Assembly: GCA_963849495.1 (NCBI GenBank)
Contig: CAWKHN010000009.1
Span: forward strand, 20,164 to 84,163
Direction: 5' to 3'
DNA from: an uncultured Chloroflexia bacterium
GTDB taxonomy: Bacteria > Chloroflexota > Limnocylindria > Limnocylindrales > CSP1-4
Length of the DNA: 64,000 nucleotides
This document shows positions 3,525 through 35,864 of the stretch, in pieces (position 1 is the stretch's first letter; each line of letters begins with the position of its first letter). A program made the translations under genes and the position numbers. The notes beneath the pieces were generated by a model, which saw only the letters and a program-made list of their open reading frames with translations, had not been told where the DNA came from and made no database searches.

Positions 3525-4997
3525 GTGAATTCAGGTTCGAGTGGTCGCCGAATGGCCACACCGCGGTCGCCGGGTCGCACCCCGCCCCGGTTGGCGATTC
3601 CGGCTGGACGCAGTCCAAGGGACAGGGCGCCGTTGGTCGGCGCACTCCTGTCATTCCTCTGGCCAGGGCTGGGCGAGCTCTACGCGGGCGCGCCGCGTCG
3701 CGCGGCGATCTTCGCTCTGCCGACGCTCGCGGTCGCGCTGTGGCTGGGTTGGCTGGCACTCGGGGGCTTGACTCGCCTCGCGTTCGACATGTTCGACACC
3801 GGCTTCTCGTCGCTCCTGCTGGGGGCGATCGTGCTCACGGGGATCCTCCGCGTTGTTTCCATCGTCGATGCGCACAGGATGCTGTCGCGGACGCGCCCGC
3901 GCTCGCGCTCATTCCCAGCGGCGACGATCCTGGTTGCGCTCGCGCTGCTCGCCCATGGCGTGGCCGGCTACTACACGGCCTCGTTCTATTCCGCGGGCAG
4001 CCAGATCTTCCATGGCGGGGGAAACGGCACGCAGGGGAACGGCGCCGGGGCCGGCTCGACCGCCGGTGACGCAACGCCCTCGCCCGGTTCGTCTTTTGAC
4101 CCGTTTGCGAACGCGAACCTGCCGACGCCGCCGGCACCGAGCTCGCGGATCAACATCTTGCTGCTGGGTGCCGACAGCGGCATGGGCTACAACCATGCTC
4201 TGACAGACTCGCAGATCGTGGTCAGCATCGACCCGACGACCAAATCGGTCGTCATGGCCAGCATCCCGCGCGACATGGCACAGTTCCCGCTCTACAGCGG
4301 CGGGACCTATAACGGCAAGATCAACTCGCTGATGTCGACGGCGCTCGCGGATCCCCGCAAGTACCCGGACGGAGGGGTGGGCACGCTCGCCAAGGAAATC
4401 GGATACCTGATCGGGATCCCGATCAACTACTACGCGTTTGTCAACCTGGCGGGGTTTGCCAAGGTCATCGAGACAGTGGGCGGCGTTGACGTCGTCAATC
4501 CCGCTCCAATTGCCGACGCCGGGTACCAGTTCCCCGACGGCAAGACCGGGTTCTACTTGAGCGCTGGCCCACACCACCTCGACAGCCGGCTCGCACTCGC
4601 CTTCGTGCGCACGCGCCAGGGAATCGGGGACAACGACTACACGCGGGCGAGGCGCCAGCAGCTCGTTCTCGAGGCTCTGCGACACGAGCTGGCAACTCCG
4701 GCCACGCTGCCCCGCATCCCTGCGCTCCTCGACGCGCTGTCCAAGACCATCCAGACGAACTTTCCTGTCGCCAGGCTGGCGGACATGATGGACCTTGCCC
4801 AGCAGATCCCGGATTCCGCGATCCAGAAGTTCGTTCTGGGGCCGCCGTATGCCGAGACACCGCCCCTTTCGACGACCGGCGGCGTCTGGCTCCTGCGCCC
4901 TAACATGACGGTGATCAAGAAGTGGTCCGCGACGACATTCGGCGCCGATAGCGTCTACTACGTGGCCCCGACGCCGAGCCCGCAGTCGTCGCCCTGA
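3525..4997 (+). CDS. LCP (LytR-CpsA-Psr) family cell-wall ligase with multi-TM N-terminus
   Basis: NILLLGAD, TDSQIVVSID, SIPRD, KINS, ALAFVRTR, NDYTRARRQQ motifs; several N-terminal hydrophobic segments. Confidence 0.9.
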   Translation: MNSGSSGRRMATPRSPGRTPPRLAIPAGRSPRDRAPLVGALLSFLWPGLGELYAGAPRRAAIFALPTLAVALWLGWLALGGLTRLAFDMFDTGFSSLLLGAIVLTGILRVVSIVDAHRMLSRTRPRSRSFPAATILVALALLAHGVAGYYTASFYSAGSQIFHGGGNGTQGNGAGAGSTAGDATPSPGSSFDPFANANLPTPPAPSSRINILLLGADSGMGYNHALTDSQIVVSIDPTTKSVVMASIPRDMAQFPLYSGGTYNGKINSLMSTALADPRKYPDGGVGTLAKEIGYLIGIPINYYAFVNLAGFAKVIETVGGVDVVNPAPIADAGYQFPDGKTGFYLSAGPHHLDSRLALAFVRTRQGIGDNDYTRARRQQLVLEALRHELATPATLPRIPALLDALSKTIQTNFPVARLADMMDLAQQIPDSAIQKFVLGPPYAETPPLSTTGGVWLLRPNMTVIKKWSATTFGADSVYYVAPTPSPQSSP

Positions 4998-20083: not shown

Positions 20084-20323
20084 TCAGTCGCGGTGAGCTC
20101 CGGCATCGATGGCGGGTTCCGGGCCGGACGGCAGGACGGGCTCCTCGTGGTCCGGCAGCTCGATCGTCACGAACCCGCCGTCACCCGCGGGCAGCGGGTC
20201 GTCCGGGCGCGCGTGATGGACCAGCTCCTGCGCCGGCGGCATGGTTCGGAGCACCTGCTGCTCGAACCCGAACAGGACGCCGCCGATCGTCTGGCCGAGT
20301 GGCTGCTTCCTGCGCTTCGCCAT
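20084..20323 (-). CDS. Small hypothetical protein
   Basis: Starts 15 nt after the kamA stop; plausible protein composition (GQTIGGVLFGFEQQVLR). Confidence 0.6.
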   Translation of the reverse strand: MAKRRKQPLGQTIGGVLFGFEQQVLRTMPPAQELVHHARPDDPLPAGDGGFVTIELPDHEEPVLPSGPEPAIDAGAHRD

Positions 20324-29607: not shown

Positions 29608-29642
29608 TTGCGTGTTCATCCGGTTATTGATACTGTGTCTCA
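29608..29642 (+). promoter_or_regulatory. Promoter overlapped by a Fur/Zur-type box
   Basis: TTGCGT 29608-29613, N17, TACTGT 29631-29636; 7-1-7 inverted repeat TGATACT-G-TGTCTCA 29628-29642. Confidence 0.7.
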
Positions 29643-29643
29643 T

Positions 29644-30561
29644 ATGACCTCGCTCGTCGATCCAGATCCTGTTGTGCCGGACGCCCGCCCGAATGTGGCC
29701 CCGCACGTCCATGCACACGAGGATCCGGCCGATCCTGCACACGCGCACGCTCATGCCGATGTCTGGCTGAGTGACGTCACCGCCGGCTACGGCGAGCGGA
29801 CCGCACTGGAGCATGTGACCCTTGCCGTGGAGCCGGGGAGCCTGCTCGCGGTGGTCGGTCCGAACGGCGCCGGCAAAAGCACGCTGCTGAAGCTGATGGC
29901 CGGGCTCCTCCGCCCCTGGACCGGACGGATCGAGGTGCTGGCCGCTCCCCCCGGTCGAGAGGCGCGGCGGGTGGCGTACGTCCCGCAGGCGGAGCTCGTC
30001 GATTGGGCGTTCCCCGTCACCGTGGAGGACGTCGTGATGATGGGCCGCTTTCCGCGGCTCGGCTCCTTCCGGCGGCCCGGTCCGGACGACCGCCGGGCCG
30101 TGACCGGCGCGCTCAGGCAGGTGGGCATGGCGGATCACGGGAACACGCAGATCGGGCGGCTCTCCGGCGGCCAGCGACGCCGGGTCTTCCTGGCCCGTGC
30201 GCTCGCGGCGGAGCCGGACCTGTTCCTGCTGGACGAGCCGGTCACCGGCATCGACGCGACCACGCAGGAGCTGCTGATGGATCTTCTCGAGGCGCAGGCC
30301 GCGCGGGGCAAGACGGTGGTTGCGACGACGCACGACCTCGCCTGCGCGGCGCAGCGGTTCCAGCAGGTGCTGGCGATCAACCGCACCGTGGTCGCGTACG
30401 GGCCGTCCAACCTCGTGCTCGATGCCGACGTCCTCGCCCGCGCGTACGGCGGCCACCTGCTCGTGCTCGAGGGCCGCACGGTGATCCTCGACGACGCCCA
30501 CCACCACGACCAGGCTGCGCCCGGCGAGCGCCACTTCCACGAGTCGGATGGAGACGGATGA
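29644..30561 (+). CDS. Zn/Mn ABC transporter ATP-binding subunit (ZnuC/MntA-like)
   Basis: GPNGAGKST, LSGGQRRR and LLDEP motifs; His-rich termini. Confidence 0.92.
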   Translation: MTSLVDPDPVVPDARPNVAPHVHAHEDPADPAHAHAHADVWLSDVTAGYGERTALEHVTLAVEPGSLLAVVGPNGAGKSTLLKLMAGLLRPWTGRIEVLAAPPGREARRVAYVPQAELVDWAFPVTVEDVVMMGRFPRLGSFRRPGPDDRRAVTGALRQVGMADHGNTQIGRLSGGQRRRVFLARALAAEPDLFLLDEPVTGIDATTQELLMDLLEAQAARGKTVVATTHDLACAAQRFQQVLAINRTVVAYGPSNLVLDADVLARAYGGHLLVLEGRTVILDDAHHHDQAAPGERHFHESDGDG

Positions 30562-31439
30562 TGGACGCCATCCTGGAGCCGCTCGCCCTCAGCTACTTCG
30601 TTCGGGCATTGATCGCGTCCACACTCGTCGGGGTCGTGTGCGCGGTGGTCGGGACCTACGTCGTCCTCCGCGGAGTGGCGTTCATCGGTGATGCGATCGC
30701 GCATGCCGGCTTCCCGGGCGTGGTCGCGGCGTACATGCTCGGCATCCCGACCTATTTCGGCGCCGCCGTGGCTGCGGTCGGCACCGCACTGGCCATCGGC
30801 CTGGTGACGAAGCGCGCGGGGATCCGGCAGGACACCGTGATCGGGGTGATGTTCGCGGGGACGTTCGCGTTCGGCATCTTCCTGTTCAGCGCGATCAAGG
30901 GCTACGTGGCCGACCTGTTCAGCTTCCTGTTCGGCAACGTGCTGGCCATCAGCCCGACCGATCTGGTGGCGCTCGTCGTCCTCGGCCTGGGCGTGATCAT
31001 GGTCGTCGCGCTGCTGTGGAAGCAGCTCCTGTACGCGACCTTCGACCCGCTCGGCGCTGCAGCCTCCGGGATCAGGGTGGATCGGCTGGAGTACCTGTTC
31101 CTCGCGCTGGTCGCGTTGACCATCGTCGTCAGCCTCCAGGCCGTCGGGATCATCCTCGTCGTCGCGATGCTGGTCACGCCGGCCGCAACGGCCCAGATGC
31201 TCAGCGTCCACTTCACGCGCCTGATGCTGCTCGCGGCGGTCGTCGGCATCGCGAGCGCGGTATTGGGCCTGTACCTGTCCTACTGGCTGGACGTCGCGAG
31301 CGGGGCCACGATCGTGCTCGTGGAGACTGCGCTGTTCCTGATCGCGCTCCTGATCGGTCCGCGGGGCGTGATCGCCCGCCGGCGGGAGACCCACCTGACG
31401 CCCGAGGCGAACGGCCCGTCGGCAACGGCGGCCGCGTGA
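30558..31439 (+). CDS. Zn/Mn ABC transporter permease (ZnuB/MntB-like)
   Basis: ABC-3 motifs GDAIAHAGFPG, LFGNVLAI, TFDP and VGIILVVAMLVTPAATA. Confidence 0.93.
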   Translation: MMDAILEPLALSYFVRALIASTLVGVVCAVVGTYVVLRGVAFIGDAIAHAGFPGVVAAYMLGIPTYFGAAVAAVGTALAIGLVTKRAGIRQDTVIGVMFAGTFAFGIFLFSAIKGYVADLFSFLFGNVLAISPTDLVALVVLGLGVIMVVALLWKQLLYATFDPLGAAASGIRVDRLEYLFLALVALTIVVSLQAVGIILVVAMLVTPAATAQMLSVHFTRLMLLAAVVGIASAVLGLYLSYWLDVASGATIVLVETALFLIALLIGPRGVIARRRETHLTPEANGPSATAAA

Positions 31440-31909
31440 TGCGCGGCGCATCAGTGACCCCGGCCGCCGAGAGCCCCGCCAGTGGGCTGGTCGAGGCCCT
31501 CACCGCGGCCGGCTGCAGGCTGACAGGGCCGAGGCTCACGGTCGCCGGGCTCATCGCCGGCCGGGAGGGCCACTTCACCGCAGCCGAGCTGGTCACGGAC
31601 GCGCGCCGGGGTCATCCGGGGATCGGCAGGGCGACCATCTTCCGGGCGCTCGAGCTGTTCACAAGCCTCAATCTGGTGGAGCGGGTCGATCTTCCGGGCG
31701 GGGACCACGCCTACGTCGCCTGCGAGGCCGTGCACCACCATCACGCCATCTGCACCCGCTGCGGTCGGGCACTCGACGTGGACGATCCGGGACTGGCCGA
31801 CGTGCTTGCGACCATCGGCGGTCGATCCGGCTTCCGGGTCACCGCGCACCGGCTCGAGATCTTCGGGCTGTGCGCAACGTGCCAGGCGGACGACGGCCGG
31901 ACCCGATGA
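31436..31909 (+). CDS. Fur-family transcriptional regulator (Zur-like)
   Basis: HFTAAEL, ATIFRALELF, HHHHAICTRC and C-terminal CATC. Confidence 0.9.
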   Translation: MMRGASVTPAAESPASGLVEALTAAGCRLTGPRLTVAGLIAGREGHFTAAELVTDARRGHPGIGRATIFRALELFTSLNLVERVDLPGGDHAYVACEAVHHHHAICTRCGRALDVDDPGLADVLATIGGRSGFRVTAHRLEIFGLCATCQADDGRTR

Positions 31910-32871
31910 TGCCGAGATCCTCCGGCTCCCCGAGACCCGCGCGGGCGCTGCGGCACAGCGGCGCCGCCCTGTCGCTCGCCGTCACCCTCCTCGTCGCCGC
32001 TTGCGGCCAGGGCACCGGCACGACTGCCTCCGGGCTCACGCCGGCTCCTGACGCCCTGCGCGTGGTCGCGACGTCCACGATCCTGGCCGACCTCGTGCGC
32101 CAGGTGGGCGGCTCGGCGGTCAGCGTGGAGAGCCTCGTGCCGGCCGGCGGGGAGGTTCATACCTTCGACCCCACGCCGTCCGACGTCCAGCGTGTCAGCC
32201 AGGCTCGGCTGATCATCGCCAATGGTCTGGGGCTGGACGACTGGCTGACGGCCCTGGCCGCCGACGCCGCCACGGGAGCCCCGGTCGTCCGTGTCGCCGA
32301 GGGGCTGTCGAGCGTGACGTACCTGAGCGGAACGGAGCCCGGCTCGACGACGAACCCGCACCTGTGGATGAATGTCGCCTACGCCTCGAAGTACGTCGAT
32401 CGCATCGAGGCCGCCCTGGCGGCGGCGGATCCCGCACATGCGGCCGACTTCAGCGCAGCGGCCGACACGTACCGAGCGACGCTGGCGACGCTCGACGGGG
32501 AGGTCCGCGCACGGATCGGCGCGTTGCCGGCAGCCAGCCGGATCGTGGTCTCGTTCCACGACGCGTTCCCGTACTTCGCCGCGGCCTACGGCATCACGGT
32601 GGTGGGCTCGATCGTCGGCGCTCCGGGCCAGGATCCGAGCGCCGGCGCCATGGCGGCCCTGGTGGCGACGATCCGATCCACCGGCGCGAAGGCCATCTTC
32701 GCAGAGGCCCAGTTCAGCCCGAAGCTCGCCGACGCGATCGCGGGCGAGACCGGCATCACGGTGGTGACGGACCTGTACACGGACAGCGTCGGCCAGCCGC
32801 CGGCCGACACCTACGTGGGCATGATCCGCTCCGACGTCGATCAGGTGGTCTCGGTCCTCGGCGGGAGCTGA
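31906..32871 (+). CDS. Zn/Mn ABC substrate-binding lipoprotein (TroA/ZnuA-like)
   Basis: Lipobox VAAC; VHTFDP, NPHLW, FHDAF and YTDS metal ligands (His, His, His, Asp). Confidence 0.93.
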   Translation: MMPRSSGSPRPARALRHSGAALSLAVTLLVAACGQGTGTTASGLTPAPDALRVVATSTILADLVRQVGGSAVSVESLVPAGGEVHTFDPTPSDVQRVSQARLIIANGLGLDDWLTALAADAATGAPVVRVAEGLSSVTYLSGTEPGSTTNPHLWMNVAYASKYVDRIEAALAAADPAHAADFSAAADTYRATLATLDGEVRARIGALPAASRIVVSFHDAFPYFAAAYGITVVGSIVGAPGQDPSAGAMAALVATIRSTGAKAIFAEAQFSPKLADAIAGETGITVVTDLYTDSVGQPPADTYVGMIRSDVDQVVSVLGGS

Positions 32872-33084
32872 GCGGGGACCCGGCGCGGCCGTGAACAGCT
32901 GACACGCCGGGACGCGGCGCACGGTACGCCCGGCGACCGGGACCATCGGCTGCCGCCGGGCTGAAACCATCAGGGCTTGCCCCGCCTCAGAACGGCACCG
33001 GAAGATACCTGGAGCCGTCATGACCCACCGCCGCGTTCCCCCTCGACTCGCAGCCGTCCCGTCGATCGCAGCGGGTGACCTGCG

Positions 33085-33801
33085 ATGCGCGTAGGCGCGG
33101 CGACGCTGATCGCCCTGGGCGCGATCGCCGCCCTGGTCGCGCTCGGCGTCACGGACCAGATCCTGCCGGCCACCCAGCCCCACATCGTCCAGGTCAGGCC
33201 CTGGATCGCCGCGCGGGCACTGGGCGTCACCGCCTACCTGCTGCTGGCAGTCGAGGTCGCCTCGGGCCTGGTCCTGAGCCACCCGAGGAACAGCACGGTC
33301 TGGCAGGTGACCAAGCCGGTCTTCCCGTGGCACGAGATGATCTCGGTGTTCACGGGCGCCTTCCTCACCCTGCACATCGCCCTGCTGGTCATCGACCCGT
33401 ACGCACAGGTCGGGGTCATCGGGGCGTTCGTGCCCGGCTTCTCCGTGTACCGGCCGCCGGCAGTGGCAATCGGCTCCGTCGCCCTCTATGCGCTCATCTT
33501 CACGGCCGTCACGGCGAAGTGGACGCGCCTCCTGCCGTCCGGGTGGTGGCTCAAGGTCCACCGCTTCGCTGCCCTGGCATTCCTTCTCGCCTGGGTGCAC
33601 GCCATCCTTGCCGGAACCGACGGCGGGGCGCTCACACCCCTGTACCTGGCAACCGGCCTGCCGATCCTGGCCGGGGTTGCACACCGCTGGTGGACCGCGA
33701 TGGGCCGCCCGCGGCGCACGGCTCCAACCGGTGACTCGTCGCCGGCCACCCCCTCGAGCACCCAGGCGGCAGCGCCGGGCGCCATCCTGGAGGACCTGTG
33801 A
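33085..33801 (+). CDS. Ferric reductase-like (MsrQ-like) heme-b membrane protein
   Basis: About 6 TM segments; four His positioned as heme ligands (PWHE, TLHI, KVHR, WVHA). Confidence 0.85.
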   Translation: MRVGAATLIALGAIAALVALGVTDQILPATQPHIVQVRPWIAARALGVTAYLLLAVEVASGLVLSHPRNSTVWQVTKPVFPWHEMISVFTGAFLTLHIALLVIDPYAQVGVIGAFVPGFSVYRPPAVAIGSVALYALIFTAVTAKWTRLLPSGWWLKVHRFAALAFLLAWVHAILAGTDGGALTPLYLATGLPILAGVAHRWWTAMGRPRRTAPTGDSSPATPSSTQAAAPGAILEDL

Positions 33802-34280
33802 TGTCTCGTAACGCCCTCAGCCGCCTGGTGCGGCGAGCAATCGTGCTCGGTGCGACCCTCGCCGTCATCGGGATCGGCGTCGGCACCGTGAAGATCGCCG
33901 GCGACTGGCGCTCCGCCGCAGCACCGCTCGACGCGGCACCGGTCGGGATGGACACCGTCAGCGCGCAACTCGTCTCCGAGACCCAGCGCACGGGCGCCCT
34001 GTCGGATCAGATCGGCTCGGTTGCCGGGCAGGTTGCCACGCTGCAGGCCGCGCTCGTCGAGGCCGACCAGCATGTGAGCGGAGACACCAAGACCGCCGTG
34101 ACTCTCAAGCAGCAGCTGGCGGATGCCCGGGTCAAGCTGGATGCCCTGCAGGCACAGCTCAAGGCCGCCCAGACGCGGCTCGCCAGCCTGAACCAGGCCG
34201 CCGCCCGGCAGGCCGCCCTGAACGCGGCTGCCCCGGTCACGACCACGACCACGACCAGCGGTGAGCACGATGGCGACTGA
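33798..34280 (+). CDS. Hypothetical membrane-anchored coiled-coil protein
   Basis: N-terminal hydrophobic segment, heptad-like Ala/Gln/Leu helix, Thr run and GEHDGD tail; GTGA overlap with the upstream gene. Confidence 0.75.
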   Translation: MMSRNALSRLVRRAIVLGATLAVIGIGVGTVKIAGDWRSAAAPLDAAPVGMDTVSAQLVSETQRTGALSDQIGSVAGQVATLQAALVEADQHVSGDTKTAVTLKQQLADARVKLDALQAQLKAAQTRLASLNQAAARQAALNAAAPVTTTTTTSGEHDGD

Positions 34281-34809
34281 GCGAACCCTTCCCGCCGTCG
34301 CCCTGCCGATCCCTGCACTCCGGCGCGATGCTGCACCGCGCGCCGAGACAAAGGCACCCGACCGTGCCGTCACCGGGCGAGGGGAGACGTGGGTCACGAC
34401 ACCGGCCCGTGCGGGAATGCTGCTGGGCGCATCCGCCGCGATCTACGCGGTGACGCTTGCCGGCGTCTCCGGCCTGCAGGCCGGCAGCGACGCAGAGGTG
34501 ACCGCCCGACATCAGCCGTACCTCGAGACCCTCGCGACCGTCCGGGCAGCGAACGATCAACTCCAGACCGCGGTCAAAGCGGCCGATACGGAGGCCCAGG
34601 CGCTGGGCGAGCTCTATGCGCGGACCGGCGACACGGTGACCGCCTACGAGGCACGTCTCGACGCCCTCGCGAGCCTGGTGGCCGAGGTCCAGGGCTCAGC
34701 GGCCTCGCTGCCGTCGCGCCTCAGCCTGCCGGCCGTCTCGGTACGGAGCTCGGTCGGGAGCACGGCACCCGCGACCAGCGCCAAGACCGGCGCGTCGGGC
34801 GCGCCCTGA
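34270..34809 (+). CDS. Hypothetical membrane-anchored coiled-coil protein, candidate flavinylation substrate
   Basis: One TM segment, coiled-coil, Ser/Thr-rich tail ending KTGASGAP. Confidence 0.75.
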   Translation: MATERTLPAVALPIPALRRDAAPRAETKAPDRAVTGRGETWVTTPARAGMLLGASAAIYAVTLAGVSGLQAGSDAEVTARHQPYLETLATVRAANDQLQTAVKAADTEAQALGELYARTGDTVTAYEARLDALASLVAEVQGSAASLPSRLSLPAVSVRSSVGSTAPATSAKTGASGAP

Positions 34810-34865
34810 GATCAGGGACGGCAGCTGCCACGCTCGGGCCGCACGCCGGAGAGCAGCACGACCGC

Positions 34866-35864
34866 GTGATTGCTTTCTCGGCCCGTGCGCTGGGCTCCGC
34901 GCTGTGCCTCCAGGTGCGGCTCTCCGAGCCCGCGTCGCCCGATGCCCTGGGCGCCGCGGAGGTTGCCTGGACCGGCGTCCGTGACGAATTCCACGCGGTG
35001 GACATCGCGATGTCCAGGTTCCGCGCCGACAGCGAGCTCACCGCGCTCAACCGCCTGGCGGGCAGTGGGATCTCGGTCCAGGCCTCGTGGCGGCTGCGGA
35101 CGGCGCTCGCGGCCGTCCACCGGGCACACCGCGTGACCGACGGGCGCTTTGACGCCCGGGTGCTGGCTGCGCTGGAGCGTCTCGGTGAGCATGGGGTGCC
35201 GCTCGACCCCTTCAGCACCACCACGGAATTCGCCGCTGCGGCATCGCCGGACCACGTCGAACGCACCGGGCCCCGTGAACGCCGTGAGCCCGGAAGACGG
35301 AGGCAGCGCGTACAGGTCCCGGAGGCACCGCTCGACATGGGCGGCATCGGCAAAGGGCTGGCGCTCCGCTGGGCCGCCGCTGCGGCCGTGCGGCGATTGC
35401 CGGCTGGTGCGGGGTTGCTGCTCGAGGCCGGGGGTGATCTCGTCCTCGGTGGGGTTCCGCCGGCCGACGGGTGGCTTGTCGGGATCGAGGATCCTGTTGC
35501 CGATCCAGGGCCGGAAGCCCAGCCTGTCGCCGTCGTGGCGGTGCACGCCGGTGCCGTCGCGACGTCCTCGATCCGCGTGCGCCGCTGGGTCGGACCGGAC
35601 GGGCGTCCGGTTCACCACCTGGTCGACCCTGCCACGGGCGAGCCGGCACGGACGGGGCTGATCGCGGTCACGGTCGCGAACGCGGATCCGGCCTGGGCGG
35701 AGATCTGGAGCAAGGCCCTGTTCCTCGCGGGGCAGGCGCGGATCGGCGAGGAGGCGAGAACGCGGGGCCTCGCCGCGTGGTGGGTGGACGATCGCGGACA
35801 CCTGGGGATGACCCCCGAGGCACGGCTGCGCAGCGCCTGGGTGGCCGAGGGGCGCCTCGGCTAG
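34866..35864 (+). CDS. apbE: FAD:protein FMN transferase
   Basis: MSRFRADSELTALN, FDARV, DMGGIGKG, AGGD, VATSS and HHLVDPATGEP motifs. Confidence 0.92.
   Translation: MIAFSARALGSALCLQVRLSEPASPDALGAAEVAWTGVRDEFHAVDIAMSRFRADSELTALNRLAGSGISVQASWRLRTALAAVHRAHRVTDGRFDARVLAALERLGEHGVPLDPFSTTTEFAAAASPDHVERTGPRERREPGRRRQRVQVPEAPLDMGGIGKGLALRWAAAAAVRRLPAGAGLLLEAGGDLVLGGVPPADGWLVGIEDPVADPGPEAQPVAVVAVHAGAVATSSIRVRRWVGPDGRPVHHLVDPATGEPARTGLIAVTVANADPAWAEIWSKALFLAGQARIGEEARTRGLAAWWVDDRGHLGMTPEARLRSAWVAEGRLG

Follow-up and report, generated by a model that had tools for sequence, protein, structure and literature searches.

A predicted flavin-attachment tail on a coiled-coil protein in an ApbE/haem-protein cluster of an uncultured Limnocylindrales bacterium

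Which protein does an ApbE flavin transferase modify in a genome in which no FMN_bind protein can be found? This question is raised by a four-gene cluster in a 64,000-nucleotide (nt) stretch of DNA (hereafter the window, G+C ~72%), which covers positions 20,164 to 84,163 of contig CAWKHN010000009.1 from an uncultured soil Chloroflexia bacterium of the order Limnocylindrales (assembly GCA_963849495.1, 3.8 Mb, 96.7% complete). The open reading frames (ORFs) of the window place four genes, g1, g2, g3 and apbE, at 33085-35864 on the + strand, exactly where an earlier reading of the letters alone (the sequence-only reading) had put them. g1 encodes a ferric-reductase-domain (FRD) membrane protein, g2 and g3 encode membrane-anchored coiled-coil proteins, and apbE encodes a transferase that uses flavin adenine dinucleotide (FAD) as the donor of flavin mononucleotide (FMN). 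Comparative sequence evidence suggests, with a probability that we put at roughly 0.6, that the cluster is a lineage-specific variant of the 'MsrQ-like' type of ApbE-associated transmembrane electron transfer, in which two small bitopic coiled-coil proteins replace the FMN_bind protein and FMN would be carried on Ser179 of g3.

The product of the last gene matched the ApbE family PF02424 over profile positions 16-263 of 266 (3e-39, 135.6 bits), and the solved ApbE structures 3PND, 1VRM and 4XGW were matched at 1e-14 to 1e-13. It retains the sequence HHLVDPATG, in the H-x-[IV]-D-P-x-T-G segment that was aligned with the solved structures. We then looked for its possible substrates. As the sequence-only reading had supposed, no FMN_bind domain (PF04205) was found in the four cluster proteins, and the same held for the whole 3.8 Mb genome at E<=1. 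A canonical substrate encoded elsewhere did not emerge either, as DUF2271 and DUF3570 were absent from the genome and NqrB/RnfD gave a noise-level match only. The host genome thus counts as 'orphan apbE' by the usage of Meheust et al. 2021 (eLife, PMC8238504), who found apbE with no recognised target in 4% of genomes.

The candidate substrate is g3. Its Arg-rich N-terminus leads into a single transmembrane helix and a coiled-coil ectodomain (~residues 75-149), followed by a conserved LPxRxxLP segment and a disordered tail; its start is probably ATG 34270. AlphaFold2 modelled a single helix over residues 48-149 with a predicted local distance difference test (pLDDT) score of 88-98 and left residues 150-182, a tail of ~33 residues, disordered; the coiled coil corresponds to a stalk of ~75 residues (~11 nm). 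The C-terminus reads ...A-K-T-G-A-S-G-A-P, and we predict Ser179, the last residue of the T-G-A-S core, to be the site of FMN attachment. This motif in g3 went unmentioned in the sequence-only reading. The flavin would not be displayed at the tip of the coiled coil, as had been proposed there, because the motif terminates the disordered tail that follows the helix.

The motif is the invariant part of the protein. Ser179 and Gly180 never vary among 30 g3 homologues, and Ala178 is kept in more than 90% of them. When the 120 nearest homologues were considered, 114 carried [ST]xAS[GA] within the last nine residues or fewer and the other six ended in [ST]GGSGG; the exact [ST]GAS core was present in 70. 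A g3-family profile search over 1.84 billion cluster representatives (50% identity) found 280 members of the family, and the motif stood at the extreme C-terminus of 133 of the 147 further representatives, with the consensus H/N/Q-A-T-T-G-A-S-G. The remaining 14 include at least eight that resemble fragments or out-of-frame reads, being short or having Arg-rich ends foreign to the family, and four that end in close variants. For two distant representatives, the encoding contigs were short ones only. In the host genome, a strict C-terminal [ST]GA[ST]G is found in 5 of 12,103 ORF frames, two of which lie directly upstream of ApbE genes. The canonical ApbE motif is D-x-x-[S/T]-G-A-[S/T]. According to a 2025 review (PMC12052999), an Asp-to-Ala exchange in it has only a minor effect, and a tag of seven residues takes up FMN most readily when it stands at the end of a protein.

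At three loci (L085, L089 and L090) and in six representatives (P0294, P0299, P0323, P0331, P0367 and P0373), the g3 tail takes the variant form N-A-C-T-T-A-S-G-K-P-C. Its two Cys flank the predicted flavinylated Ser, which fits an extracytoplasmic disulfide loop, and such tails may close into a disulfide mini-loop. Export of the tail proteins by the Tat pathway, which would suit a cytoplasmic ApbE, was also considered and was dropped, since the twin-Arg is not conserved in g3.

Is the coiled coil itself required? The genome encodes exactly four ApbE and four FRD-like proteins, each ApbE gene adjoining an FRD-like gene, and at each of the three loci outside the window the ApbE gene is preceded by a gene for a small protein of no known family that is anchored with its N-terminus inside (N-in) and has a conserved, Ser-containing C-terminal tail. 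One of these proteins, which we call D-type, ends in ...PVPTGASGTPPP (...PTGASGTPPP) and has internal TGAT and AGAT; the second ends in ...VVTTTRQSGVP (type ...T[RK]QSGxP) and is preceded by a partner protein that ends in HHGDDGAEGDND; the third ends in ...NAHASTGGS. The T[RK]QSGxP and AHASTGGS types recur in relatives of the same genus, among which no orthologue of the D-type protein was found. The anchored proteins, or 'masts', of these three loci are low-complexity or beta-like, and the C21 operon opens with a gene for a 240-aa anchored protein with a Pro/Thr-rich linker and a beta-rich C-terminal domain that belongs to no Pfam family. Two of the three operons adjoin OmpR-type two-component genes. 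Since these paralogous loci use masts other than coiled coils, the coiled coil is not essential and is just the mast of the window copy. The idea of coiled-coil proteins standing in for an FMN-binding domain beside ApbE and a haem protein therefore keeps its core on the comparative evidence and loses the coiled coil as a necessary part. The wider module appears from the sequences to consist of a haem protein, an ApbE and a protein with a Ser-Gly tail, joined at two of the four loci by a protein with an acidic tail.

The cluster is also conserved as a unit. In 43 close loci, g1, g2 and g3 are always present and ApbE is present in 42, but the whole neighbourhood is conserved in these loci and so their synteny alone says little. 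We then examined 20 divergent loci, which have unrelated flanks and a g1 identity of 45-50%. A g1 homologue and ApbE were found in the same order in 18 of them, with two small ORFs at the positions of g2 and g3; BLAST detected g2 in 13 and g3 in 15, L076 has no detectable g1 homologue and L086 no ApbE. The order FRD-g2-g3-ApbE is common to two families of the class despite the changed flanks. In the family that we label f4, loci L072, L075 and L077 are flanked by methylmalonyl-CoA-mutase-like and 5'-3'-exonuclease-like genes, as read from translated ORF ends, and the g3 tails end in ...ATTGASG[R/K/H]. The g3 family as a whole has members in 58 of the 301 class genomes sampled, which belong to 21 of 57 genera and to the two families. 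At locus L095, the tail of g3 has degenerated to HATSGGSAKP.

The electron-carrying component would be g1. It matches PF01794 (Ferric_reduct) at 30.8 bits against a gathering cut-off of 28, its other profile matches being PF01292 and DUF4405 only, and PF01794 matches are precomputed for most of its homologues. The four residues His83, His97, His159 and His172 are shared without exception by 26 orthologues and the three same-genome paralogues, which upholds the description of g1 as an MsrQ/ferric-reductase-like protein with four haem-ligand His. The pairs His83/His97 and His159/His172 are spaced by 14 and 13 residues, which we take to be the spacing of NOX-type bis-haem sites, and they constitute two predicted haem b sites. 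The AlphaFold2 secondary structure has six helices. As the model is of low confidence (pLDDT 54), it was unfit for a fold search, and a g1 profile gave no match to the sequences of the PDB. The profile scan detected no module for FAD or nicotinamide adenine dinucleotide (NAD) in g1, including a C-terminal PF00175.

The g2 protein resembles g3 in layout, with an Arg-rich N-terminus, one transmembrane helix and a coiled coil (~residues 50-136). For both proteins, the search for a Pfam or NCBIfam family returned none, just low-scoring coiled-coil noise. In a heptad test, each ectodomain kept a single unbroken register (z ~6 against shuffles), with bulky hydrophobic residues at 67-68% of the a/d positions compared to 6% elsewhere. 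The two proteins were thus rightly described as membrane-anchored coiled-coil proteins of no recognisable family with overlapping genes, the overlap being 11-20 nt (1-4 nt between g1 and g2). A paralogous relationship between g2 and g3 was rejected (hhalign probability 0.5%). The C-terminal tail of g2 ends in ...SGEHDGD; across the 43 close loci and the divergent loci all listed g2 tails are acidic, mostly ending in Asp, and many contain His. Normally, then, g2 appears to carry an acidic tail and not a flavinylation motif. In two genera, g2 has TTGASG directly ahead of its acidic C-terminus (L087, ~4018-4509, and L090, ~3700-4205), and there both stalk proteins may be flavinylated.

From these data we infer a scheme of how g3 is flavinylated and pairs with g2, which way electrons flow and between which partners, and in which compartment ApbE works. 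In this scheme, electrons from menaquinol or a separate cytoplasmic reductase would cross the membrane by way of the two haem b groups of g1. ApbE would move FMN from FAD to Ser179 within T-G-A-S-G at the end of the flexible g3 tail, which would hang from the coiled-coil stalk outside the membrane, and the tethered flavin would take electrons from the outer haem and hand them to an extracytoplasmic acceptor. g2 probably pairs with g3 in the stalk, which would bring its acidic C-terminus, often with His in it, close to the flavin, where it may bind a cation. We also put forward, as a tentative idea that we think somewhat improbable, that such tails are natural 'flavin tags', i.e., redox carriers without a cofactor-binding fold: FMN would be loaded onto the disordered tail by a signal-less ApbE, possibly in the cytoplasm before export, the tail would act as a swinging arm on a ~11 nm mast, and the cation awaiting reduction would be bound by the acidic g2 tail. 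On this idea, the flavin could reach the outer haem as well as acceptors past the membrane surface, as we estimate tail and mast to be of similar length.

Several observations weigh against flavin transfer to the g3 tail and electron transfer through it. At position -6, where the canonical motif has Asp, the g3 family mostly has Thr, Pro or Ser, and the Gly at -2 is swapped for K, R, S, T or A in ~40% of the homologues. According to the model, the flavin would sit on a disordered peptide without an evident binding pocket. g1 clears its Pfam threshold only narrowly, and its AlphaFold2 model is poor. Two loci, L086 (G060) and L095, keep g1-g2-g3 with no adjacent ApbE. Finally, ApbE has no signal peptide, yet the positive-inside rule would place the tails outside the cell.

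The last point was pursued in the sequences of ApbE and its relatives. The frame of the window copy is open from 34389, and its sole plausible start is the GTG at 34866, which lies just before the first beta-strand and 56 nt after the g3 stop. Neither the window copy nor 42 orthologues have a signal peptide or a hydrophobic leader, and the window copy has no lipobox. However, canonical clusters occur in relatives (L054 in G002, L067 in G006 and L057 in G012), in which an FRD-FAD/NAD fusion and an anchored FMN_bind protein (DGVSGAT) accompany ApbE, and the ApbE of these clusters is leaderless as well. As a leaderless ApbE thus also goes with an anchored FMN_bind substrate, the puzzle is lineage-wide and not specific against g3. 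Either flavinylation takes place before export or ApbE gets outside by another route. At two loci, L029 and L047, no stop separates the g3 frame from ApbE and the sequence of the g3 tail is missing; these fusions are probably indel errors in long-read metagenome-assembled genomes and not real, and they were left out of the evidence.

The same lack of a signal peptide would suit a different arrangement, in which ApbE stays in the cytoplasm and modifies another protein, while g2 and g3 form a stalk or scaffold that organises or regulates the haem protein, the tail serving, for example, in docking. Cytosolic ApbEs are known (PMC12052999), and the loci that keep g1-g3 without an adjacent ApbE would also be accommodated. 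This arrangement would, however, need a substrate in a genome devoid of FMN_bind, DUF2271, DUF3570 and NqrB/RnfD, and it leaves aside that the invariant part of g3 is precisely the ApbE motif, that a tail protein lies directly upstream at four independent ApbE loci and that relatives pair a signal-less ApbE with an anchored FMN_bind substrate. We consider it unlikely. It is much harder still to see g2 and g3 as an envelope tether like the Braun lipoprotein, whose C-terminal motif would serve cell-wall attachment, glycosylation or phosphorylation instead of flavin binding. The architecture is Lpp-like, since Lpp too, as is generally known, combines an anchor in the membrane with a long coiled coil and a C-terminus that has a function of its own, and many f4 tails finish in Arg, Lys or His after the motif. 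Nevertheless, T-x-A-S-G is fixed whereas the endings differ (G, AP, VP, R, KP, H), no sorting signal of the sortase type or a similar type is present in the tail, and it would be left unexplained why ApbE and a di-haem protein are so strictly found together with these genes at four paralogous loci.

Hardly any weight can be given to the idea that g1 is a true MsrQ that feeds an MsrP-type molybdoenzyme encoded elsewhere, with the ApbE and coiled-coil genes as accessories; we regard it as the least probable of the explanations. The source annotation of g1 homologues, 'methionine sulfoxide reductase heme-binding subunit', speaks in its favour. Like the E. coli MsrQ (YedZ) of the MsrPQ system, g1 belongs to the PF01794 family and has no fused NAD(P)H-binding module, but no MsrP-type partner adjoins it and ApbE is found instead. 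Two Oxidored_molyb (PF00174) genes are present in the genome; they are carried by two other contigs, C15 and C11, and neither adjoins any of the four FRD-like genes, each of which has an ApbE gene as its neighbour. Flavin transfer to the g3 tail beside a di-haem protein is the reading that we prefer.

We next consider the surroundings of the cluster (Table 1). A promoter-like motif, TGAAACC-N15-18-[CG]CTC[AG][AG][AT], precedes g1 in the close loci. Most divergent loci have it too, and the same is true of family f4 taken alone, so that the four genes are probably transcribed from a promoter of their own. The form TGAAACC-N17-CCTC[AG]GA occurs twice in the genome against 0.55 expected matches. 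Its second copy (C21:79140, - strand) lies in front of the paralogous ApbE_D operon, just downstream of which are genes for an extracytoplasmic function (ECF) sigma factor and an RskA-type anti-sigma factor (C21:73087-74579). This suggests that the g1 locus and the ApbE_D operon may form a small ECF-type regulon. An upstream ORF of ~23-25 codons was present in ~40 of the 43 close loci and in about half of the divergent loci; its peptide is not conserved and is rich in Pro and Arg, and it is probably a translational coupler or a regulatory leader. In the gap before g1, a riboswitch search gave a noise match to Rfam only, and a scan for sigma-70 promoters and terminators yielded nothing useful. 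At the other end, the ApbE stop is overlapped by a convergent pfkB-family kinase gene.

The cluster does lie downstream of a metal-uptake operon on the same strand, as the sequence-only reading had stated; the gap from the stop of the ZnuA-type gene to the start of g1 is 213 nt (214 bp in that reading). The nearest solved relatives of the ZnuA-type binding protein are of the Mn/Fe type and the AztC type; its ligand pattern, read as His-His-His-Asp from the alignment, leans towards Zn. In family f1 a cluster A-I metal transporter adjoins the four genes, in arrangements that vary and that include a divergent paralogue, but no Znu-type operon is found near the f4 loci. This absence, together with the promoter-like motif between the operon and g1, makes the link to the metal operon weak. 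A functional link of the four genes to metal uptake is possible, and metal reduction by the system is a conjecture.

Table 1. Features of the ApbE/haem-protein cluster and related loci (window positions, except where a contig of the genome is named)
Feature	Position	Strand	Size and description
Cluster A-I metal ABC (ATP-binding cassette) uptake operon	29632..32871	+	ABC_tran ATPase, ABC-3 permease, Fur-family regulator, ZnuA-type binding protein (Pfam)
Promoter-like motif TGAAACC-N17-CCTCAGA	32962..32991	+	ECF-sigma-promoter-like; conserved upstream of g1
Short upstream ORF	33020..33094	+	24 codons; GGAG ribosome-binding site; TAG stop overlaps g1 codons 3-4
g1, ferric-reductase-domain (MsrQ/NOX-type) membrane protein	33085..33801	+	238 aa (amino acids); PF01794, four invariant His
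g2, N-in single-pass anchor, coiled-coil ectodomain, linker and acidic His-containing tail	33798/33801..34280	+	160 aa; no family; heptad test
g3, N-in single-pass anchor, coiled coil, LPxRxxLP and disordered tail	34261/34270..34809	+	179-182 aa
T176-G177-A178-S179 codons of g3	34786..34797	+	[S/T]GA[S/T] core
ApbE (FAD:protein FMN transferase)	34866..35864	+	332 aa; PF02424
Three further ApbE/FRD-like operons	C5:249282-251452, C5:286017-288473, C21:76179-79102		

How does the cluster relate to systems already described? To our knowledge, the ApbE substrates known so far are folded domains, i.e., FMN_bind, NqrB/RnfD, DUF2271, DUF3570, some flavodoxins and FMN reductases, and we found no description of domain-free tail substrates in the papers searched. 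The closest counterparts are the 'MsrQ-like' flavinylation clusters, in which a PF01794 di-haem membrane protein is likewise encoded with apbE and electrons are proposed to reach an extracytosolic covalent FMN (PMC8238504). Under the operational definition of that study, the g1/ApbE cluster and its relatives are 'MsrQ-like', and the canonical version is present in relatives of the same genus. Unlike the clusters described there, which typically include an FMN_bind gene and frequently a PF00175 domain on the haem protein, the cluster in the window has neither. Its substrate, as we propose it, is a C-terminal tail without a domain, borne by a coiled-coil protein that has an acidic-tail partner. 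ApbE genes without signal peptides were discarded in that survey (PMC8238504).

ApbE substrates outside the FMN_bind family have been reported among FMN reductases and Flavodoxin_4 proteins (Huang et al. 2024, mSystems, PMC11334425). The Ser that is modified in the flavinylated FMN reductases belongs to an extension at the C-terminus, as it would in g3, but these proteins have a folded flavin pocket, whereas the g3 model is a single helix with a disordered tail. A still closer likeness is to the engineered 'flavin-tag' (Tong et al. 2021, in the account given in PMC12052999), in which a terminal peptide of ~7 residues ending in [S/T]GA[S/T] suffices for ApbE. In that account the tag is artificial and keeps the leading Asp, whereas the tag of g3 would be natural, Asp-less and used for electron transfer.

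If the prediction is true, a terminal peptide on a disordered tail would be a new kind of ApbE substrate, and the principle of the engineered flavin-tag would already be present in nature. This would raise the question of how a tethered flavin without a pocket serves electron transfer, and it would sharpen the puzzle of signal-less ApbEs that serve exported substrates. On the more tentative idea of natural flavin tags, the four modules of this genome, with their different masts, would represent a family of domain-free extracytoplasmic electron outlets, and such tags would also account for many of the 'orphan apbE' genomes.

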